From Escherichia phage CMSTMSU: a stretch of DNA of 64,000 nt. The notes below the pieces were generated by a model. It did not search any database and was not told where the DNA came from. It was given only the letters and a program-made list of their open reading frames with translations. Shown piece by piece: positions 8,650-62,986 of this stretch (the first letter of the stretch is position 1; every line of letters begins with the position of its first letter). The stretch lies in the sequence record MH494197.1; one strand, 5' to 3'. The translations under genes and the position numbers were made by a program.

Positions 8650-10119
8650 CTATAGATTATTTATATAAAGGACAAGGAAGACCCACAAAGGTCTTCCCTG
8701 TTTATAATCAATCTTCAGTTTTGGCGTGAAGTCAATCTTACGTAGTTCTTTCAACTCATCTTTATAGATGTTCCAAATCAAATCATGATTCGACAGGAGA
8801 TTGTTATATTCATCCATTAAATCCAAGTTATGTTGAATATCAGCTAGTACTGATTGATAATTGTCTTGGGTCCAACGATATGATGGGAAGTTTACGATGC
8901 TTTGAATATTCTCATCGGTTGCTTCGATTTCAGTGTTTAATGATTTAACAAACTCAACCATTTCTGAACGGTTAGCAAAACCCTTAACCTTAGCAATCAT
9001 ATCATTATCAAAACATTCTTTGATTAGAATCTTATAACGTACTTCAGCAGCACAATCATCAAGTTTCTTCTCATAGCGTTTCACATAGTATTTGAAACGG
9101 AATTCAACAAAGTCCTTAATCAAATCCATTGTGTTATCATAGACTTTAACCTTACCATTCTCACCTAGAACAGTTAGGATTTGTGTCATCTTCTTATGAA
9201 TGCCAAAGTATTCAATTACATCTTTCTCCACCCATTTAGCAGATGTTCCGCGTGGTAATTTGATTGTAATATCAATAACATCAGTACTATCATTATCATA
9301 ATCACGAATATCACCATCATCGCTCATCTTAATGAGTTTCTCGATGAATTTCTCAATACTGTAGTTAGGTGGTAGACCTGTTACTTTAACAGTACTGGCA
9401 TCAATTACTTGTGCTTTACCATAGAACTCATATTTGTTTTCATCAAGCTTAGTTACGATATCACTTGCACCACATGAAACATAGTATGGAGTCATTTCTT
9501 TTAATGGTTTTTATCAATAGCACGAATACAGTTATCAATAACATCTTCAATCTTATGTGGTAGAATTGTACTCTTATAACCTACTGACATACTATCGTTA
9601 CCAAACAAAGATAGTGGGATAATAGGTAAAAAGAAACTTGGTTCCATTGTAGTACCATCATAGTTCTCTTTCATTGGAATAATGTCAGAGTCACGCAGTA
9701 CTAACATTTCAGTACTTTTATTCTTTTAACATAAGTATAACGAGCAGAAGCTGGAGTACTGTTTACTTGTGTACCAAAACCACCACGTTTACCAATGAGT
9801 GGGTAGTTGTTTACTACTGGTGATGCTAGGTTCTGGAGAGTTCCAGATGCAGATGTATCACCGTGTAGATAGATACCATCACTAATCATTTTACCAGCAC
9901 ATGATACAGTTTTGATTTCACCACTAACTTTTGAGAGGGTGAAGATTGCTTTACGTTGTGAACTCTTAAGGCCATCAATCCCGGGATTGCACGGTCTAGT
10001 GTGTACATTGAATATTCTAGTGATGTGGTATTCACATAATCAGAACTGTTATAATCTAGTAGAGTTAGTGTTTGGTTATCGATGCTTTGATTTTCGGTTT
10101 TTACTTTTAGCCATTCCAT
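8650..10119 (-). CDS. gp52: DNA topoisomerase II medium subunit (T4 gp52-like, GyrA-type)
   Basis: YSMYTLDRAIPGLMALRVHNVK at N-terminus; fragments 9886..10119, 9701..9889, 9501..9707, 8650..9495 in different frames. Confidence 0.8.
8658..8665 (-). promoter_or_regulatory. T4-type late promoter TATAAATA
   Basis: exact TATAAATA on the minus strand about 20 nt upstream of the start of gene 6880..8638, just downstream of hairpin 8676-8697. Confidence 0.4.
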
Positions 10120-10133
10120 TGTCTCTTTGTAAA

Positions 10134-10165
10134 GGGAACACCATGTTCCCCATTAATCTATATTA
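10134..10165 (-). repeat. repeated intergenic element, copy 1: TATAGATTAAT box plus GGGAACA/TGTTCCC hairpin
   Basis: minus-strand sequence AATATAGATTAATGGGGAACATGGTGTTCCC in the 44-nt gap between the two topoisomerase genes. Confidence 0.6.
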
Positions 10166-12158
10166 TTCCATCCAGTTCTTACGATCATCAGCACGTTTCT
10201 TGTTGAAAATCAAATCAAGAGTTTCACCAAGGCGACCATCATCTGTAATCGCTACTGCAACACTGTTAGTGAATGCATCACGGAAGTTTGCTTTTTCTAA
10301 CGTACCCAATCCTTTCGCACGGGTTGCTTTCCAACCTTTCCAATCATCTGGGTTGTATTCATGTACATCATGACCATAGTAGTACTTGGATTCCTTACCT
10401 TTCTCTAGAATGATGAATGGTGTTTTGAATATATACACAAATGGATTCTCTGGGTCTTGGAATAGTTCAGGCCAGAATTTGTATAGGAAGTTACATACTA
10501 AAGCACCAATGTTCTTTCCATCCTCATCTTCGTCGGCACAGATATAAAGCTTACCATAGTTAAGGTCTGCTCTTTCCGCTTTTACACGGAATCAGGTTGA
10601 TACTCGCCATTATATCATGCAATGCCATTGAATCCATTAATTCTTTGGTTTTCTCATTACCACTGACGTTCATAATTTTACCACGCAATGGTAGAATACC
10701 ATGAACTTTAGGATCACGAGCACTCGCCATGTTGGAAATAGCAGAATCACCCTCAGCAATTAGTAGGATGCATTTGGAACGATCCGTACCTGTACTGTCC
10801 AATAGTTTTGCAACTTTACCTTTCAGTAGTTTTTAGCTAGACGGCGATCTTCTTCTGCATCTTTCTTGTTGGTACGAGCAGCACAGCGTTCAAAAATTTC
10901 ATCAATCCACTCTTTGTTCTTCTTGACTAATTCATCGAACCATTCAGAATTCATCGCTTGTTGAATTGGACGAATAACGTTTTCGTTGGTTAGTTTTGAT
11001 TTAATCTGTGAGTTGAATGATGGTGCTTTCATCGTTGTTACGTTATAAATCAACAGACCTTCTTCAATATCAGAGCGGTTAGGTTTCATCTTGCGTTTCT
11101 TTGATTCTTTCTCTAGAGCAGTTCCTACTCCTAATGAGAAGAATTTCTTGAATGTATCAAGATGTGTACCACCATCAAATGCTGGGGCATTGTTAACCAA
11201 ACCATGCATATGGAAGTTATTGTTCATACCCGATACTGCATTAGGAACAATGTAGAAAGTACTGTTAAAGTTGAATGATTCATCTTTAACGTTCAATTGC
11301 ATCAGTTTAGATGCGTTGAATAGTGCTTTTTCGGTAGTTCCTTTAATTGCAATACGCTTACCGTTAAGGAAAATCTTATAGGTAGGGTTAGCAGCAGACA
11401 TTTCTTTCAAAATACTGTATAGCAATTCGGTTGGTAGTTTACGGTTCGGAAATACCTCAGAACTCAAAGTGAAGCGAATTGTTGTTCCAGTCTTATCTGC
11501 TTGAACCTTACGAATAGTTGGTTCATGTACATGAAGTTCAGGAAACATAATAGTTCCTTCTTCGAACTTCTGATTGAACTTATAAAACCGTCATAACCGT
11601 CATTGCTACTTTGTGTTTTATACGGGCGACCTTGGCGATGGATTTCAAGTTCAGCTTTAGAACTTACAATCATTGCAACTGAACCACCCAAACCATTCTG
11701 ACCGATTGTTTCATCACGCTTCGAATCATCAAAGTTACGACCAGTTTTAGTTTCAGTCATTACCATTGTACATAGGTTTTTCTGATACTCAGGAACATAG
11801 TCAATTGGAATACCACGTCCATTATCACTGATCTCAAAGGATAACTCTTCCTCATTGAAATCAACTTTGAGTACTGGCTCTTTTGTACCAGCTTTTTAAA
11901 TTCATCTAAGCTGTTATCGATAATTTCACGAGTAGCAGTTAGAATTGCAGGAACCCACTCAACGTTTTTAACTTCATATCCAGACTCACCAAAGATCAGT
12001 ACTTGACTTTCGTGAACAGAACGTGAACCCAGATACATCTCAGTACGCAAGCGAGCATGTTGATAATCGTTTAGACGTTGTACATCATGTTCCTGAAGAA
12101 CAGCACTTTCTTTCTTAGCCATTTGAATTCCTTTTAATGTCTCTTTGTCATGCAACAT
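10163..12158 (-). CDS. gp39: DNA topoisomerase II large subunit (gp39 plus gp60 equivalent in one gene, GyrB-type)
   Basis: GHKL ATPase region, Toprim ILLIAEGDSA, C-terminal RAKGLGTLE; five fragments 11760..12158, 11464..11766, 10823..11548, 10560..10802, 10163..10438 in shifted frames. Confidence 0.8.
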
Positions 12159-12191
12159 TGTATCATCAATGCTTTGTTTGTCTCAAAAATA

Positions 12192-28262: not shown

Positions 28263-28417
28263 TCATTGTCAGAGGTGGCACTAAGAATTGTTGTTACTGA
28301 CGGCAGATTCCTGTTGGAGTTGAATAAAGGCGACCTTCGGGGCCGCCTTCAATTCTTTGTAATCAACGTATGTATATCTGCTAACAATTGGTGGTGTGTA
28401 CATCCGTGTACTCCTAA

Positions 28418-28772
28418 TTATAGCATCGTATTTTTGTTTGTCTCAGTTTTATTGCTTATTTGCTGCAACAGCAGCTTTTGTTGCCAATCTTCAACTTGGT
28501 CTTCAGAGTTCTGTTCAACTTCACCAGTACTTTCTGAATCATTACCAGTAAATGTTACAACATCCGAATTCGCATCTTGCACAAATGGCAAAGAGTTTAG
28601 AATATCCATCATAACATTATAAGGAACATCAATGTTGGTTCGCTTTTGATTTCAGCGATTAAAGATTGTAGGTTCACTTCTTCGCGACCCGATGATACTA
28701 AAGACAACGCAATAGTAGTAATCATATTGCGTATGTCTTTACCGAGCCTCTTCTGTAAGATCTTGAAATCTC
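28418..28772 (-). CDS. hypothetical protein, frameshifted
   Basis: ATG near 28772 (MRFQDLTEEARKD..) then ORF 28418..28612. Confidence 0.3.
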
Positions 28773-34773: not shown

Positions 34774-34828
34774 AATTTAATCCTTGTTATTTCTCACAAA
34801 TGATTATAGCACAAACACTTGTTTTGTC

Positions 34829-35500
34829 TCACCTGCGAATCAAAATTTTAGGAACTGACAGTAGTGGGTCATAGACTTTTCTTACTGCCGCATAGTCATA
34901 AGGAACTGGAACGATCTTAGGATGAATACAAACAACCAATCGCAACCACATGTAATTACCTTTAAAATTAAATGCTTGAATCCCATCTAACGCTTTAGGG
35001 AATCCATTTTCATCAATATCATTTTCGATATATTCTTTACCATCCAATTTAACAATAAACCATTTATAGTTTTCGTTATCAGTTGGTACGTTATTACACA
35101 AACATCCTTGTAATTGAATTCTACCAATAAATTTATCAAAGTACATTGCAATAGTACTAAGACCATCAACTAATCCGTACTGCATTTGTGCAGGAAGGGA
35201 GATGTTGCCATTATATCAAATTCACCAATAACGCCACGAGCGATTGGTTCATGATAAAGCGTTTGATGGTAGTCCATGCTGGGTTTTATTAACAGATACT
35301 TCAATACTTGGCACAAACACAGGAGCAGCTTGGTCGGAAATGATCAATTCAGCAGAGGCTTCATAATCAAGACCAGTGTATAAGTACTGTGTAGGTTCAA
35401 TCAAGGAACCATCCATTGTTACTTTAGTAATACTCCATCTATATTTTGAACGGGACTAGTATCCTGAATTACACCAGCAGGAACAATACATCCATAATAT
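34829..35500 (-). CDS. hypothetical protein, frameshifted
   Basis: ORF 34829..35185 plus upstream open frame. Confidence 0.3.
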
Positions 35501-44687: not shown

Positions 44688-44841
44688 ATTGGGCTTCCTT
44701 GTCATTAGTTTGTTTGTTAAGTTTTAACGGGCTATTAACGTTGATTTGTCTTCATTGACTCATCAACAATTTACATTATATCATGGGATTTTTAACCGTC
44801 CCAAGGTTTTTTACTCTGTTTGTCAAGGCTCATTGCCCTGA

Positions 44842-50045
<5,204 letters not shown>

Positions 50046-50076
50046 TTATAGCACATCTTTAATCACTTTCCCAGAT

Positions 50077-50152
50077 TTGATAAATAATATCATAGAGATC
50101 AGGGAATATTGCCTTAAATTTAAATGTGGTTTATATTTTTGATAAATAATAT
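50077..50152. promoter_or_regulatory. divergent promoter region with two copies of TTGATAAATAATAT
   Basis: exact 14-nt direct repeat at 50077-50090 and 50139-50152, the second 44 nt upstream of the ATG at 50196. Confidence 0.35.
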
Positions 50153-50195
50153 TAAGCAGGGTGTTCCTGCACAAAATTTGACAAGGAGATTTTTA

Positions 50196-50792
50196 TGAGT
50201 CTTAATTCTTTTAACCGTAACTATGGTATGTCTGCTACTGCTCGTGAATACTGGGTGGTAACAATGGTTTCGTAACCATCGTTGTTGATCTACCAGCAGA
50301 TGTTGAAGTTGGTACTACCGCTGTTACTTCTGACGGTTCCGAAATTCAAGATGAAGCACTACAAACTGCAATCAGCAATGCTCAATACAACCAATTCATG
50401 ATTACCCAACTACTACAACAACGTGCAGTACTAGTTACTACTTCCGTACTAGCTCTAGACACCGCTGTTGTTATCCCTGCTGACTTTAAAACCGTTGGTG
50501 GTAACGTAATCGCGTTTGGTACTAGTGGTGCTGATGTTGCAGGTGGTGCTGGTTCTGTTGCTCTAACCTTCATCTGTGAACGTCAAGACGTATTTGACAA
50601 ACAAGAAGTTCGCCCGTGCTGCTTACTCTGTTCCAGTTGATCCAACTGTTGAACTAGCTAAAGCTATTGCACAAGCTAAATTCTTCCGTACCAAATCTTA
50701 TGTTGCTCTAGGTACTGATGGTGTTGGTGATGCTGCTGCCGCTGACGCTGTTGCAATTAAAGTTCGTGCTGCTCTACCAGTACAACTATAAT
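50196..50792 (+). CDS. probable abundant late protein, paralog A (unknown function), frameshifted
   Basis: AAGGAGA RBS 7 nt upstream of ATG; gct/cgt/act/cta codon usage matches the capsid gene; LLQQRAVLVTTSVLALDT...FICERQDVFDK. Confidence 0.5.
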
Positions 50793-50805
50793 AGGGGACT
50801 ACAAT

Positions 50806-51494
50806 ATGTCTAATACTAATACTTCTTTGAACGTATCAATGGTTATTCCTTTGATAAAATTCTAGGTTACTTCTGTGGCAAAAACGCCCTAGCATCTATC
50901 GCAATTAGTAAAATTGGTAATGTTAACGTGCGTGTTACTGGTGCAGTTGGTTCTTTCGCTGGTCTACAACGTTTCCTAAACACTGACGTAGCTGATGAAA
51001 TCGTTGCATATCTAAACGAAAAAGGTATCATCCGTATCGATGGTACTCCATTTGAAGCAGCAACTCTAGAAGCTGATTATAACGCTGCTTACGCTGCACA
51101 AACTAACGTTAAACGTATCGTTGATGTTGTTCAACAACGTGCAGTTATCATCGCTACTTCCGAAATCGCTGGCAACGACGCTGAACCATTTGCAGTTACT
51201 GGTTTTACCAACGCTGCTGACGGTATCCTAAGTGTTGGTGCTGTTGATATCGCTAGTGCTTCAGTAGTTACTTTCCTCGTTGAACGTGCTAACGTATTTG
51301 ATAAAGATATTCAATCTTTCCAAGGCGTTCCAAGTACTGAAATCGAAGAAGGCCGTCTACTAATCGATGACCTAACCGCAGTTCCACTACTTGCTAATGA
51401 TGGTGTTACTGAAGTTGTTCTACGTTCCCAAGCTGCTGATGCTGCGGGTGACTTCGGTATCAAACTATTCAAATTCATCCCAGCGATGGTTTAA
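50806..51494 (+). CDS. probable abundant late protein, paralog B, frameshifted
   Basis: ORF 50928..51494 plus N-terminal MSNTNTSLNV; VVQQRAVIIATSEIAGND...FLVERANVFDK parallels paralog A. Confidence 0.5.
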
Positions 51495-51511
51495 TAAATT
51501 AAAGATAAAAG

Positions 51512-51540
51512 AAAAGGAGAGCTTTTGCTCTCCTTTTTAT
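51512..51540. terminator. strong bidirectional rho-independent terminator
   Basis: AGGAGAGC-TTTT-GCTCTCCT hairpin flanked by A-run and T-run, between convergent genes. Confidence 0.75.
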
Positions 51541-51689
51541 TTGTATGAACGAAACCCTTCAGGTAAACCGTAGATTCTCTAACCCTTCGTTCGCATTCAC
51601 TAGCTTTACGTCATAATCATCACTGAAATCATCCGTAGCTAGTTTACGCCCCATGTCTCTAACGAAGTTGTCAATAATTTCTTCTTCGT

Positions 51690-52250
51690 CATTGCGGATG
51701 ACCTTCCGCTTTTAACTTTTTCCAAAAGTATTCATTATAATCAAAACAAATTCAACTTCATTTGTTTCTGGATTAAGTACTACATCCAAATCAATCCAAG
51801 GTTCTTTACGTAAAGTAAAGATTTCCTTTGAATACTCTTGTTGTGTAATCTCTTCATAACGATATGCAAACTCGATAGCTTTAAGACGTTTGTCATCACC
51901 ATCAGGCATTAGTTCGATTACTTCCATATCATACTCTTTTGAGTAATTGCACCAGTACTTAATTTAGCATCAAGTAATTTTACATTATACTCATCACGGG
52001 TAATCTTGGAATACTTCAATTGTACATCTGCCTGTGCTATTAGATAATCAAGAGTTTCTAATACATTGTATTTCTTTTGATATCCAACTGTGCTATATCA
52101 ACTTCATATGGTGTTAGATATGTAAGTTCTGCAACTAACATATCAGCTTCATAATCATCGTTATAGTAGTATGCTTTCGCAATCTCTTTCGCTTTACCAG
52201 AAAGTCCCCAGTGAGCGGGACCATCCAGAAAGGAATAAACCTTTTTTAGC
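51690..52250 (-). CDS. hypothetical protein, frameshifted
   Basis: ORF 51712..51927 plus upstream frame MAKKVYSFLDGPAHWGLSGKAKEI. Confidence 0.25.
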
Positions 52251-52261
52251 CATTTGATTTC

Positions 52262-52547
52262 TTACCAAAATTTCTTCAATTTTCATCACATAATATGTGT
52301 CTTCACCACCACCAAGATCTTCAGTGATAGGAGTGTTTAGTGATGAACGACCAAATACAACCATATCACCAACACAAATATTATGTTCTGCAATTTGTCC
52401 ATTAGGTAGTACTTTACCTTCACCAACTGAAATCACCATACCAACACATGGTGGTTCAACGTTTCCTAGGATAATACCACCAGTACTTTTGTTCTGTGCT
52501 TCAATTTGACGAACCAGTACATAATCGTTAATCATTTTAATTTTCAT
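52262..52547 (-). CDS. groES: GroES-like co-chaperonin (Cpn10)
   Basis: MKIKMINDYVLVRQIEAQNKSTGGIILGN...VGDMVVFGRSS..YYVMKIEEIL; the listed ORF 52194..52631 has extra N- and C-terminal residues. Confidence 0.6.
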
Positions 52548-52785
52548 ATCAGTAACCTCCAGTGTTTGCAAACCATTTACCACGGAAATAAAGATTAGCA
52601 CCTTTATCACGGGTAAAACTTCCAACTTCATAGTCTTCTCACCATTACATTGTGGACAATCATGAGGTTCTTCACGATTGGCAATTTTACAATCTTTTCT
52701 AAACTGTGTTTACATTCTTCTTTTCACAACGATATGTATATAATGGCATTTTTGTCTTCCTTTACTTATTTTTAAATCAAAATTT

Positions 52786-52817
52786 GGGGAACTCCATGTT
52801 CCCCATTATTTATATTA
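52786..52817 (-). repeat. repeated intergenic element, copy 2: TATAAATA box plus GGGGAAC/GTTCCCC hairpin
   Basis: minus-strand sequence ATATAAATAATGGGGAACATGGAGTTCCCC, near-identical to 10134-10165. Confidence 0.6.
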
Positions 52818-53544
52818 GCAACCAGTTACGTAAATCTTGTATACTGCAATACCAGTGTCTAGAGTTACGTTTAGCATACCAGTTTTGGTAATACCTAGGG
52901 TAACAGATTCTGCGTTAGAAACGCGGGATAGAGCTTGTAGAACACGGTCAATGTTATAACCAAAACCAAGACCTAGTTCACCTTCAGTTTTAGAGAATGC
53001 TAGTGCACCAACGTGGTTACTTTTGTTCTTCTCACCAACGTGGAAGTAAAGAGTATCACCTTCAGTGTATGGAGTTACTAGAGAACTGAAAGATTTAAAC
53101 ACACCAGAGAAGCTTTTAGTTCCTGAACTTTAGCTGCACTAGGTGTAACCTGTACGTCATATGGTTGTTCGTGGAAACGAGGCTGGGCTGGAATTAGTTT
53201 TTCTGGTTGAACCATGAAAGTAGTGCTTGCATCTTCTGCTTTGAATGCTAGGCTCTTAACTGCACCATCTTTCAAATTAGAAGTGATAGTAGTTCCTTCA
53301 GTACTGTAAGTTTTAGAGACATTAGACCCTGTAGAAGACCTAGGTTACCAAGACCAAAACGACCTTGAACTTCTGGTACGTCTTCTTTAGTGTGAGCACG
53401 CATAACTAGGGTGCGGTCATCGGTGTATGCTTCCATGTAAACACGCTGTCCATCACCACGGTCTTCACTGCTAACTGCGATACAAGAAAAGTCGATGCCG
53501 TTGGTAGTGTTAACTAGGTCACGTAGTACGTTGCGTAGATCCAT
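52815..53544 (-). CDS. probable sliding clamp (T4 gp45-like), frameshifted
   Basis: about 240 aa in three fragments; N-terminal LRDLVNTTNGI resembles T4 gp45 LKNFATINSGI; size and location next to DNA polymerase fit. Confidence 0.4.
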
Positions 53545-53645
53545 TATATAATTCTCCGTTTTATTTGTTAATCAAAAATGTTTTGTATGCTTCAGATTAC
53601 TACAAGCACCATTATATCTCGTGAATGATGCTTGTCTCATTTTTA

Positions 53646-54089
53646 TCAGTATTTTGTGTTCCAACGTTTAAGGTACGGCTTATCAGCGTTTGCACCTGCA
53701 CCAATGTTGAATTTGTAACGTAGATGTTCTAAGTCTTTTAACGTGTTAACATCTTCAACAATGACAACTTTGCGTTTCTTTTCAATAGAATAGACGTCAA
53801 CAATCTCACCGTCGATTTCAACAGAACCAGTTCTGGTGAAACCAGCAGACATTAGAACAACTTCATCATCATTATTGTATGCAAGTACTGAATTTACGAT
53901 AGTACTATCTTCCAGTACTGCACCAACACGCTTATAGATATTTTCCATATTACTCTCCTTGGGATGCACTCCATAAAACGTACTGTTCCACGCCTCGTTA
54001 ACACTGTCCTCAGACAGTGCTAGTGATTCATCAGAGAATACGTCATTTACTTCGTCATATTTTAGTTTAGTTTCGTCTGCAATAATCAT
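53646..54089 (-). CDS. hypothetical protein (147 aa)
   Basis: intact ORF, ATGA overlap with the polymerase end. Confidence 0.4.
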   Translation of the reverse strand: MIIADETKLKYDEVNDVFSDESLALSEDSVNEAWNSTFYGVHPKESNMENIYKRVGAVLEDSTIVNSVLAYNNDDEVVLMSAGFTRTGSVEIDGEIVDVYSIEKKRKVVIVEDVNTLKDLEHLRYKFNIGAGANADKPYLKRWNTKY

Positions 54090-57000
54090 AATATTTTCCT
54101 TACGGTGAAGAATCCGTTATTAACGGCTGCTGTACTTTTCTCATGAATACCAATATCCATATCCAGAATACCAAAAATGTTTTCTAATTTTTAGTTAGAA
54201 CTATTTCTTCCATTTTCTCTGTATCAAATGGTAGTTCTAGGAACCATTCAGGTAGATATTCCACACAGTCAATTGGATAACCTACTGCTTTGATACCCAT
54301 CGGGTTATCTTTTAAGTTACATACAATTACTTTTGTACCGTCAGTTACTTCAGGTACAGTTTTGTCATCATATACTTCACGTAGACGGTTCCATTGAATA
54401 CCTGCTAATACATGACCAACTTTACATTTACCAGAAACTTCATATTCTGCTTCTAAGTTGGTATAGTTCTTAACAGTTTTCGGTGAACCTTTTTCGTGTA
54501 CTGGCATGTCTTTAAATACCTCTTTAAAGTCACGTACACGCTGTTTAAGTTGAGCTTCAGACTCACCCACCAGCAATGCAATTAGAGTCTCTTCTAGGAA
54601 GTTCTGGATGTATTTTGGCGTGTCTGAACGTTTAATTTCAAGACCCATCGCTTTAATTTCACCGGCTTACCATCAACATCTTTACGGAAACCATCTTCCC
54701 AGTACTTGAGAATTGCATAACGCTTTTCTTCAGGAATAGACCACGGAACCGACCATCTCTAAGTCTGCACCAACAATCTTACCTTTCTCAATACCAGTAT
54801 TGAACATTTCGTTCATGAATGAAGGGAATGATTCGCCAACTTCATCACCGATTTTGATATACATGTCAACGATTTCTTCTTTAGAAAGATTATATGGAAT
54901 ACCTTGTTCTTTCAGGTAATGAGTTACACTGAAGTAAACGGAGTCAGTATCACCGTAAATCACAGAGCCACCTTGATGATTATAAACACCAGTAGTGATT
55001 TCATTGATACGGCTTGCCATATGTTTAGTCATAGAACGACCAGTTAAGGTAACGGACTGACCTAAACGCTTATCAAAGAAACGTGAACCTTTGTTCAATA
55101 GTGCACCATATAGACTGTTTAGAAGAATCTTACGAATTTGCTGGTTCTGTTTCCAGAATGCACTTTGCTGTTTGAAGTAATTCTTATCTTCCGGTGCACA
55201 GAAAATACGACCATCTTTCAGTACTAAACCATTTTCCACAATGAGTTTTGCAACTTCTTCCCATTGACCTTTACCAATAGCAATACGTAATAGATAAACA
55301 GGATCATTGTCATGTAAGTTTGTACGGAACATTGTACCACTTGTGTAGTTAGATAGCAAAGGTTCAACCTTCTCAGAACCATTGAATTCCCACCCATCAC
55401 TGTACATGTGTTTGTAGTCGATTACCATTTTTGTTGTGCTTTACGCTCAGAATACCATTGAGTAAGAATATCTGGAATTACACCATACTTAGACTTATCA
55501 AAAAGTGTTCCGTTAGCACTTAGTACAATAGTACTGTCTTCAGCAAAGATAATATCATACAATTCTTTACCAGTTGCATTGAACGAACTACCATCTTCTA
55601 AATCAACAATCAAAGTTTTGTCAGATTTTTCATGAACCATTGTAAATTCTACAGCAGCAAATAAACCATGCCATGCTGCGGTCCAATCAGGTTCAAACGC
55701 TTTAGATTTGGATTTAGCTTTTTGTTCTTGTACTTTAGCAGCAAGATATGCATCAGTGTAGTCTTGACGAAGTTGTCCAAGAATACATTCAGTACTCATG
55801 CCAAGTGTACGTAGTACAGTTGGATACAATGAGTTAAAGTCTGTACATCCCAAATCGCTAACAAGGCCAAGAACTGGATCTTGAACCCATGCACCAGCAG
55901 CTTTTGCACTGATTTTCTCATCTTCTTCATCACCTTCTTCACCATAGTACTCCATCTCTGGATCTAACTCAAAATCATCCTTCGGTGCTTTGTTAAAACA
56001 ACTTCACCGCGTGAGTGAGCGAGGTTGATAATAGCAGTGTCGATTAGTGCAACAGAACCCATTGTGGTACTAATTAGTACACATTCTTTATGAGCAAGAC
56101 GGTTATGCAGGTTGATAAAGTCACATTTAGCATCAATTTTCTTTAGAAGAATACTATCCTGCTTAGAATAACGCAAGAATGTAATGTAATCTTCTCGGTA
56201 TAATTTATCCAATGAACCTTCATAGGATACTTTGTTTTCTTTAGTTACTTTTTCAGCAATATAATCTAGTTTGTACGACTGTTCAACTTGACCAGCATGT
56301 TTCTTATAAAGAGCAAGATAGTCTAAGTGTACGCGACCAATAAGATCATACGTTACTACAGTTTTACCAAAGTTATCAGCTTCACGAGCATTTGGTTTTT
56401 ATTCCACAAGCACCAACGAGCAGTAGTTGCTTCATTGAAGATTTTCTTGGTACGGTTTACCATATATGGAATATCAAAGAATTCACTGTTCCAACCTGAA
56501 ATTACATCAGAGTCATCGATTAGACTAAAGAACTCCATAAACATTTCTTTCTCATCCGTATAAAGGATGACAGTACTGTTAGGTCGTTAGTTTCTTCGTT
56601 TAACTGACGAACAATATCTTGTGCTTCGTACATTTCCATATCAGTTGGTGGTAAAGTCAGTACATAATCCTTACCAGTCCATGATTGATATAGAGAAATT
56701 GCAGTTACACGGTTGAATGGATCTGATGGTGGAGCATAACCAAACTTCTTATGGAAGTCGGTTTCGATATCGAAAAATGCTACGTTCAAATCCGGCGAAC
56801 CTTTACCCATGTATTCTCTAGCCAACGTTTTGAAGGTAATGTTGCAATCACTTTCAAAAATACGTAGACCTTCATTTTTATGTTGCTCAACGCTTTTATT
56901 CATCTGTGATTGAGTTTCAAACTCCAAATGCTTTGCGTTGGTTCCATAAATTGTTTTGTGTTCACCAGTAGGAGATTCAACATAATATTCATATACTGGG

Positions 57001-57477: not shown

Positions 57478-57659
57478 ATTTGTTTGCTTCTCCATGTGTT
57501 TTGAAAAAATGTCATCTCACAACCGCTGTAAGATGACTACATTGTATCACTACTTACGATTTTGTTCCAAAAACTTTTAAACAGGTTTAACAGGGAACGA
57601 AAACTTCTTCTTACTAAATTCAGATGTTGTTAGAGATGATAGCTCAAGAACATATGCTT

Positions 57660-61776: not shown

Positions 61777-61784
61777 TATTTATA
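61777..61784 (-). promoter_or_regulatory. T4-type late promoter TATAAATA upstream of the capsid gene
   Basis: exact TATAAATA on the minus strand 45 nt upstream of the gp23-like start. Confidence 0.5.
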
Positions 61785-61803
61785 GAACTGAAAAATTTGA
61801 TTA

Positions 61804-62931: not shown

Positions 62932-62978
62932 TCGTTCTCTCCTTTAAGTACTGAAATATCTGTACTTCAACATACAAA

Positions 62979-62986
62979 TATTTATA
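62979..62986 (-). promoter_or_regulatory. T4-type late promoter TATAAATA upstream of the scaffold gene
   Basis: exact TATAAATA on the minus strand 48 nt upstream of the scaffold start. Confidence 0.5.

Follow-up and report, generated by a model that had tools for sequence, protein, structure and literature searches.

The closest described counterparts of the element treated here are the predicted Rho-independent terminators of Rak2-like jumbo phages, found at orthologous positions in CBB (Torf265; PMC5259590), G17 (157680-157700 and 114836-114855) and Munch (201030-201054). They lie directly past the clamp stop codon or, in the case of the other hairpin treated below, past the stop of the topoisomerase II large-subunit gene, and share with the window (the whole stretch of DNA analysed, 64,000 nucleotides of record MH494197.1, Escherichia phage CMSTMSU) the GGGGAAC/GTTCCCC stem, either the same or changed in a compensatory manner, at -11 to -13 kcal/mol. 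However, the T-run of the window is displaced by 3 nt and an exact TATAAATA is found between the stop codon and the stem. The same word is the box of the T4 late promoters, which involve gp55, gp33 and the gp45 clamp, and the likeness to them consists of the identical 8-bp box, an encoded gp55-like sigma factor and the avoidance of the word in coding DNA. The putative promoter of the window differs from those of T4 in that the DNA downstream of the box is G-rich, in that it stands before a stable hairpin and in that most relatives lack a box at this place. There are also the intercistronic C(UUCG)G hairpins of T4, stability elements that protect the 3' ends of mRNAs. Like them, the window has a short GC-rich stem-loop past a stop codon between two cistrons, and the XbC2 orthologue even has a C-UUCG-G tetraloop, whereas the window has the 5-nt loop ATGGA, which is not an exceptionally stable tetraloop.

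The reading that we favour, with a probability of about 0.7, is that the hairpin past the clamp gene is a conserved stem-loop of the Rho-independent terminator type that would close the clamp transcription unit (promoter 53639-53611, clamp, hairpin). We prefer it because of the conservation of the hairpin in 15 of 15 genomes, the compensatory stems, the adjacent T-runs, the existing annotations and the middle-type promoter upstream. The site would then show where, at the 3' side, the transcription unit of the clamp ends in a lineage of jumbo phages that is poorly annotated.

The hairpin past the clamp gene

The region around the element is 98% identical to Escherichia jumbo phages of ~350-380 kb (Turkey3, WPEC3, fEgEco12 and Ecwhy_1), while identity to the Asteriusvirus phages 121Q, PBECO4 and G17 is ~84%; GAP32, CBB, Serratia BF, Munch and others are more distant kin. 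What the window contains is a 121Q/Rak2-like jumbo coliphage, in an assembly rich in indels. Over 7 kb (window 50000-57000) it differs from fEgEco12 by 70 substitutions, 36 deletions of 1-2 nt and one insertion, and nearly all the deletions fall in A/T/G homopolymers or CCWGG (Dcm-site) contexts. Because they lie almost entirely in such contexts we take them as sequencing errors and not as biology; the pattern looks like uncorrected nanopore-type error. The genes of the clamp, the DNA polymerase and the topoisomerase are fragmented by the indels into ORF pieces, and errors reach the element itself, the true tail at the clamp gene (copy 2 of the hairpin) being AAATTTTTGATTT and the true copy 1 GGGGAAC ATGGT GTTCCCC TTTT, as read in the closest relative. 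The features of the clamp junction are the following.

53611..53639, minus strand: site resembling a middle-type promoter (TGAGAC-N17-TATAAT), ahead of the clamp gene and of the class of CBB Porf_265
52815..53544, minus strand: gene annotated in related records as the sliding clamp (gp45-like), in three ORF pieces through indel errors (mapped from fEgEco12 g359)
52817-52815, minus strand: clamp stop codon TAA (from the sequence)
52814-52807, minus strand: exact TATAAATA box, the T4-type late-promoter word (8/8 match), a possible weak late promoter
52786-52804, minus strand: whole hairpin GGGGAAC-ATGGA-GTTCCCC (from folding and conservation)
52804-52798, minus strand: 5' arm of the hairpin, GGGGAAC (from the sequence)
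52797-52793, minus strand: loop of the hairpin, ATGGA, 5 nt (from the sequence)
52792-52786, minus strand: 3' arm of the hairpin, GTTCCCC (from the sequence)
52785-52774, minus strand: tail AAATTTTGATTT (AAATTTTTGATTT in the closest relative), a T-rich tract 3 nt off the stem
52547..52749, minus strand: zinc-ribbon (CxxC_CxxC_SSSS) gene, its ATG at 52749-52747, 57 nt past the box
52246..52547, minus strand: GroES-like co-chaperonin gene (homologue mapping)
51537..52253, minus strand: gene for a virion structural protein, homologous to fEgEco12 g362 and last of the downstream cluster (homologue mapping)

The original prediction had placed an exact TATAAATA directly against the clamp TAA, followed by a hairpin, and the minus strand reads precisely so. 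An AT dinucleotide separates the box from the 5' arm, and the hairpin begins 10 nt past the TAA in the orientation of the clamp gene. Its stem counts 7 bp, five of them G-C, and is extended by a closing U-A pair (52805/52785), with a folding energy of -11.2 to -12.9 kcal/mol (about -11 to -13). A GGAAG Shine-Dalgarno lies between the tail and the zinc-ribbon ATG, and the virion structural gene is the third of the cluster downstream of the box. Sequence searches of Pfam, NCBIfam and PDB, a 10-sequence profile included, found no match for the clamp protein, and its AlphaFold model (pLDDT 37) was too poor for a structure search; we have therefore taken its identity from the annotations of other authors.

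The junction past the clamp stop codon was extracted from 15 genomes, and in all of them a GC-rich hairpin was found 7-12 nt past the stop, with energies from -9.4 to -16.2 kcal/mol. The stems include GGGGAAT/ATTCCCC in ph0011, AGGGAGC/GCTCCCT in CBB, AGGGAAC/GTTCCCT in XbC2, GGGAGAT/ATCTCCC in EJP2 and CAGGGGAT/ATCCCCTG in Hallingskeid, all of them compensatory, and an unguided alignment of 14 orthologues had double changes in six of the eight stem pairs. Since the stems change in a compensatory way, the alignments show the clamp-gene hairpin to be under selection, and the earlier argument that such conservation speaks for function and not chance is upheld to that extent. The loop is unconserved across relatives (ATGGA, ACTAT, AAGTT, GTAAT, TTAAT, TAT, TTCG and others). 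The hairpin is also kept where the downstream gene differs, most genera having a phosphoesterase insertion there.

All nine relatives without the box have the anatomy of textbook terminators at the tail, with a T-run 0-2 nt from the stem (for example GTTCCCC TTTTTTATATGG in GAP32), as against 3-9 nt in the box-bearing lineages; the types are represented by TTTTGGTTTT in A4, TTTTTTAT in GAP32 and AAATTTTTGATTT for the window. There the T-tract is offset by 3 nt, AAA being followed by T4 (T5 in fEgEco12), and despite this offset the scan tool calls the site terminator-like, with an 8-bp stem. Previous annotations coincide with the hairpin in several records: the G17 orthologue is annotated as an ARNold terminator (-13.3), the Munch record has a terminator at the orthologous hairpin, and in CBB it is listed as Torf265, AGGGAGCGTAATGCTCCCTcTTTTTATTTGGAT, -11.7 (Table S8; PMC5259590). 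The equivalent promoter upstream of the clamp gene is Porf_265 of the same study (Table S6; PMC5259590), and the clamp gene looks like a promoter-gene-terminator unit. Compared with these records, the clamp-gene hairpin is an already annotated feature of an ordinary kind. A scan of the whole window against Rfam at gathering thresholds gave no family match, and a literature search for transcriptome, start-site or transcript-end data on 121Q/Rak2-like coliphages found none, the RNA-seq of PA5oct concerning a distant relative and having no site-level data.

The reverse complement of the hairpin also scores terminator-like in the scan tool, and it might serve transcripts of the plus strand. Against this, the bidirectional terminator at 51511-51538 already closes the nearest plus-strand genes, and a T-rich tail on the antisense side is found only where the box is. 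Two further candidates were rejected: a mini-ORF of 11 aa through the hairpin (ATGGGGAACATGGAGTTCCCCAAATTTTTGATTTAA), which has no Shine-Dalgarno and whose ATG is lost in G17 (ACGGGG), and a RegB-like GGAG target in the loop, loops being unconserved among relatives.

As a separate observation, GAP32, CBB, BF, Munch, XbC2, Hallingskeid and EJP2 have a phosphoesterase gene of ~620 bp that separates the terminator-type hairpin of the clamp gene from the zinc-ribbon gene and is missing from the window clade and the 121Q-type phages (compare window 52750-52815). The boundary of this indel falls directly past the hairpin. Klebsiella phage fENko-Kae01 has a near-identical gene start there, annotated as a much longer hypothetical protein.

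The putative late-promoter word in the genome and at the clamp junction

In the closest complete relative, fEgEco12, the product of g336, which adjoins the gp47/gp46 homologues, matches phrog_12791 (1.4e-152) and phrog_234, 'late sigma transcription factor' (1.5e-16); Pfam, NCBIfam and single-sequence PDB phmmer searches gave no match for this protein, so that its putative identity as gp55 comes from the PHROG profiles and a published CDD match. A gp55-like protein has been described in CBB as well, and for both CBB and GAP32 an ATAAATA motif that precedes structural genes has been proposed as a late motif (Table S7; PMC5259590). By count TATAAATA is not over-represented, with 5 sites in the window against 7.5 expected, and its intergenic raw count is not enriched either, ranking 31st among the 56 8-mers of the same composition. 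Its coding count, at 2 against a mean of 24.7, is the lowest of these 56, and its intergenic fraction (78%) the highest. Such avoidance in coding DNA is, as sequence statistics go, the signature of a sequence harmful if misplaced. Nine sites were found in 250 kb of fEgEco12, eight of them sense-oriented and 12-60 nt upstream of a gene start, and seven of these eight precede capsid, baseplate or other virion genes. The gp55-like sigma factor, the coding avoidance and the placement before virion genes make TATAAATA a plausible late-promoter word, and it is probably the T4-type one in this phage. Coding avoidance and the extended form NTAAATA-N3-4-TATA support, at the level of sequence, a T4-like late transcription system in 121Q/Rak2-like phages.

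In the putative late promoters (fEgEco12 100-350 kb; window 61777-61784 and 62979-62986) we have observed the form (A/C/T)TAAATA-N3-4-TATA, set in flanks rich in A and T. Coding DNA avoids ATTAAATA nearly as much as TATAAATA (4 and 2 sites, respectively, against the mean of 24.7).

The site before the major capsid gene is placed as follows.

61777-61784: putative major-capsid late promoter, TATAAATA box

What seems plausible for the word genome-wide holds less well for the box of copy 2, the flanks of which are atypical. In T4, late promoters require the DNA just past the box to be AT-rich and easily melted (PMC2988020); past the copy 2 box stands the G-rich ATGGGGAACA. From 29 NTAAATA sites upstream of structural genes, which have AT-rich flanks and often the form NTAAATA-N3-4-TATA, we built a flank PWM with leave-one-out scores; the copy 2 box scored -4.75, below 28 of the 29 putative late sites and below 70% of the NTAAATA sites of coding regions. 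Other late boxes in the genome lie past terminator hairpins (for example upstream of g420 and g555), an order that is reversed at copy 2. At the clamp junction the box stands in four Asteriusvirus sublineages (window clade, 121Q/G17, UE-S1 and Turkey5); ph0011 has a degenerate form of it (TATATATA), A4 and eight other genomes lack it, among them all other genera, and in eight relatives NATAAATA was found nowhere from the polymerase gene to the structural gene. The 10-nt spacer with TATAAATA is identical in the four sublineages, where loop and tail vary, which hints at selection on the box; the T-run moved 3-9 nt away from the stem in box-bearing lineages also speaks for a function. An exact-pattern scan of IMG/VR for TATAAATAAYGGGGAAC returned 121Q and unrelated phages; in unrelated metagenomic phages (L027 7059-7092, L029 9750-9790) TATAAATAA(C/T) is followed by GGGGAAC-loop-GTTCCCC and a T-run past a stop codon. 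The same leader-plus-stem thus arises independently in ordinary terminators, which weakens the promoter reading.

The T4 late box sits about one helical turn upstream of +1 (PMC2988020). With that geometry the start would be expected 6-7 nt past the box, at the fourth G or the next A of the 5' arm. RNAs that start at the fourth G or later lose the stem upon folding (-2.1 to 0 kcal/mol), while a start at the second or third G leaves a 5' stem of 5-6 bp (-5 to -9 kcal/mol). As initiation would fall inside the 5' arm, a transcript from the box would lack the 5' hairpin and escape termination, contrary to the earlier proposal of a hairpin at the extreme 5' end. In this genome the presence of an exact TATAAATA does not by itself justify the call of a late promoter. 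Real late-promoter activity of the copy 2 box appears to us possible but doubtful, and it would be at best a weak, lineage-specific late promoter.

The topoisomerase II junction and competing explanations

The other copy of the hairpin is located directly past the stop codon TAA of the topoisomerase II large-subunit gene.

10133..10162, minus strand: copy 1, TATAGATTAAT followed by GGGGAAC-ATGGT-GTTCCC(C), where the gene of the large subunit of topoisomerase II meets that of the medium subunit

With up to 3 mismatches allowed, a 21-nt match was found at two places in the window where 0.00 would be expected, the two copies agreeing at 19 of 21 positions over ATGGGGAACATGG[A/T]GTTCCC[C/T] and having a similar A/T-rich leader past the TAA. 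The claim that the same element stands at two junctions holds for the hairpin and fails for the box, since copy 1 has TATAGATT in its place, with 2 mismatches to TATAAATA; no TATAAATA box precedes its orthologues in any relative, of the window lineage or beyond, and in the other genera nothing there resembles one. The conserved 'same element' is for this reason the hairpin and not a promoter with a hairpin. The copy 1 orthologues are compensatory too (GGGGTAC/GTACCCC in BF, CBB and GAP32). In these three phages the two hairpins differ from each other (GGGGAAC against GGGGTAC stems, and also loops and leaders), which makes the near-identity of the copies specific to the E. coli lineage. From this comparison copy 1 is a separate hairpin, conserved at an orthologous position of its own and built on the same common GGGGAAC/GTTCCCC stem. 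Around 70 distinct intergenic GC-rich hairpins were found in 250 kb of fEgEco12, mostly with T-runs, and some are reused at several junctions (GGTTGACTTCGGTCAACC ~8 times, GCCAGTAC...GTACTGGC ~12 times, and also AAAAGGAGAGC...GCTCTCCTTTT); in CBB, Torf8, Torf18 and Torf338 are other GGGGAAC...GTTCCCC terminators (PMC5259590). Similar hairpins at two unrelated junctions are not special. The spacer between the large and medium subunit genes (window 10112-10165, minus strand) is conserved across genera as hairpin, AACAAAGAGRCAA and ATGGA-ATG.

The composite originally proposed, in which the gp55-RNA polymerase would start at the box of both junctions and the 5'-terminal hairpin would stabilise or regulate the late mRNA, accounts for the exact 8/8 box in a phage that encodes a gp55-like sigma factor, for the avoidance of the word in coding DNA and its placement before virion genes, for a downstream cluster that ends in a virion structural gene and for the conservation of the box in the four sublineages; a start at the second or third G would even spare 5-6 bp of the stem. 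We nevertheless regard it as quite improbable, the hairpin being present past the clamp gene in every relative, box or not, and kept with the anatomy of a terminator in ten relatives without the exact box (the nine boxless ones and ph0011 with TATATATA). To this are added the TATAGATT of copy 1 with nothing box-like in other genera, the lack of NATAAATA between polymerase and structural genes in eight relatives, the flank score of -4.75 where T4 needs an AT-rich segment (PMC2988020), the position of other late boxes behind and not before terminator hairpins, and an initiation expected inside the stem. A late promoter nested in a terminator would act as a temporal switch: middle transcripts of the clamp gene would meet the full hairpin and be stopped or trimmed there, and gp55-dependent late transcripts would start in the 5' arm and read into the zinc-ribbon, GroES and virion-protein cluster. 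The gain of the box in part of Asteriusvirus would then have been coupled to the displacement of the U-tract, the terminator being remodelled into a promoter/terminator hybrid. We hold this to be unlikely; if true, it would provide compact temporal control through start-site choice.

Some features fit termination less well. The T-run is not adjacent to the stem in the window lineage, for which the canonical definition predicts weak termination, and copy 1 orthologues in distant genera are without a T-run, which may speak for a role other than termination. One could also see the hairpin mainly as an RNA-level signal, be it a site of processing, a barrier to nucleases or an operator bound by a protein, by which neighbouring cistrons would be expressed in a given ratio (clamp against downstream genes in one case, topoisomerase large against medium subunit in the other). 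Copy 1 is compensatory in BF, CBB and GAP32 yet has no T-run there, and stands at a fixed spacer of ~9 nt with AACAAAGAGRCAA upstream of the next start codon (longer in EJP2), while at copy 2 the displaced T-run and the C-UUCG-G loop of XbC2, like that of T4 intercistronic hairpins, point in the same direction. The unconserved loop argues against sequence-specific recognition by a protein, most copy 2 orthologues have textbook terminator tails and no Rfam family was matched, all of which leaves such a signal as a rather improbable main role of the element. For copy 1 on its own, the lack of a T-run past the hairpin outside the E. coli phages suggests that it may have an RNA-level role (processing, translational coupling) rather than one in termination. 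The 19/21 match and the similar leaders past the TAA could also be due to a dispersed mobile or repeat element or to an assembly duplication, the latter having been offered as a refutation of the element. A repeat would be expected in variable presence and in many copies, but there are only two GGGGAAC-ATGG(A/T)-GTTCCCC copies in 250 kb of fEgEco12, both in unique flanks and both fixed at the same orthologous junctions in every relative, independently sequenced and of several genera, and the two hairpins of GAP32, CBB and BF are not alike. As far as sequence comparison goes we have rejected this origin, which retains next to no credibility.

The sequence, its fold, conservation and covariation, the published annotations of the orthologues and the behaviour of TATAAATA across the genome are what the analysis shows; that transcripts do end at the hairpin, that the promoter fires and where it starts is inferred. 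Under the terminator reading, transcripts initiated upstream would contain both arms and fold into a hairpin of ~-12 kcal/mol. The clamp transcripts would either terminate at it or be trimmed back to it, and the hairpin would at the same time be a protective structure of their 3' end. The 3-nt offset of the U-tract probably makes termination incomplete in the Asteriusvirus lineage of the window. The TATAAATA between stop codon and stem would be a lineage-specific feature of an A/T-rich spacer that may fire weakly, in a gp55-dependent manner, for the zinc-ribbon, GroES and virion-protein cluster; if it fires, the start inside the 5' arm would yield a late RNA without the hairpin that would not be terminated there.

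Recurrent hairpins and motifs

Several other recurrent sequences were observed. In fEgEco12 between 307 and 327 kb the hairpin AAAGGGTTGACTTCGGTCAGCCCTTTTT occurs ~8 times, often directly followed by GCTATAAT, and these repeats look like terminator-promoter cassettes between small early genes. At 330-347 kb of the same genome, hairpins of the GCCAGTAC...GTACTGGC family stand between paralogous genes, ~12 in number, for a 'chromosome condensation regulator'. The bidirectional terminator of the window at 51511-51538 is a strong one (GAAAAGGAGAGC-TTTT-GCTCTCCTTTTT) and lies between convergent virion-protein genes, with a near-identical copy of its hairpin at position 170370 of fEgEco12. The promoter-like motif TGAGACA-N~13-TG-N-TATAAT recurs upstream of replication genes, always on the minus strand; its counterpart in CBB and GAP32 is the class called 'promoter 1', TGAAACG...TATAAT (PMC5259590).

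5430-5458, minus strand: TGAGACA...TATAAT motif
12157-12185, minus strand: TGAGACA...TATAAT motif
28417-28445, minus strand: TGAGACA...TATAAT motif
34803-34831, minus strand: TGAGACA...TATAAT motif
44775-44803, minus strand: TGAGACA...TATAAT motif
44850-44878, minus strand: TGAGACA...TATAAT motif
53611-53639, minus strand: TGAGACA...TATAAT motif, the site upstream of the clamp gene
57541-57569, minus strand: TGAGACA...TATAAT motif

Another word, TTTCAGTWC, is found 11 times in the window against 2.4 expected, a number reached in none of 100 shuffles; seven of the sites are on the plus strand and the others are the following.

51334-51342, minus strand: TTTCAGTWC
53083-53091, minus strand: TTTCAGTWC
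61785-61793, minus strand: TTTCAGTWC
62948-62956, minus strand: TTTCAGTWC

In three cases TTTCAGTWC abuts a late box, as in the TTTCAGTTC-TATAAATA that precedes the major capsid gene.
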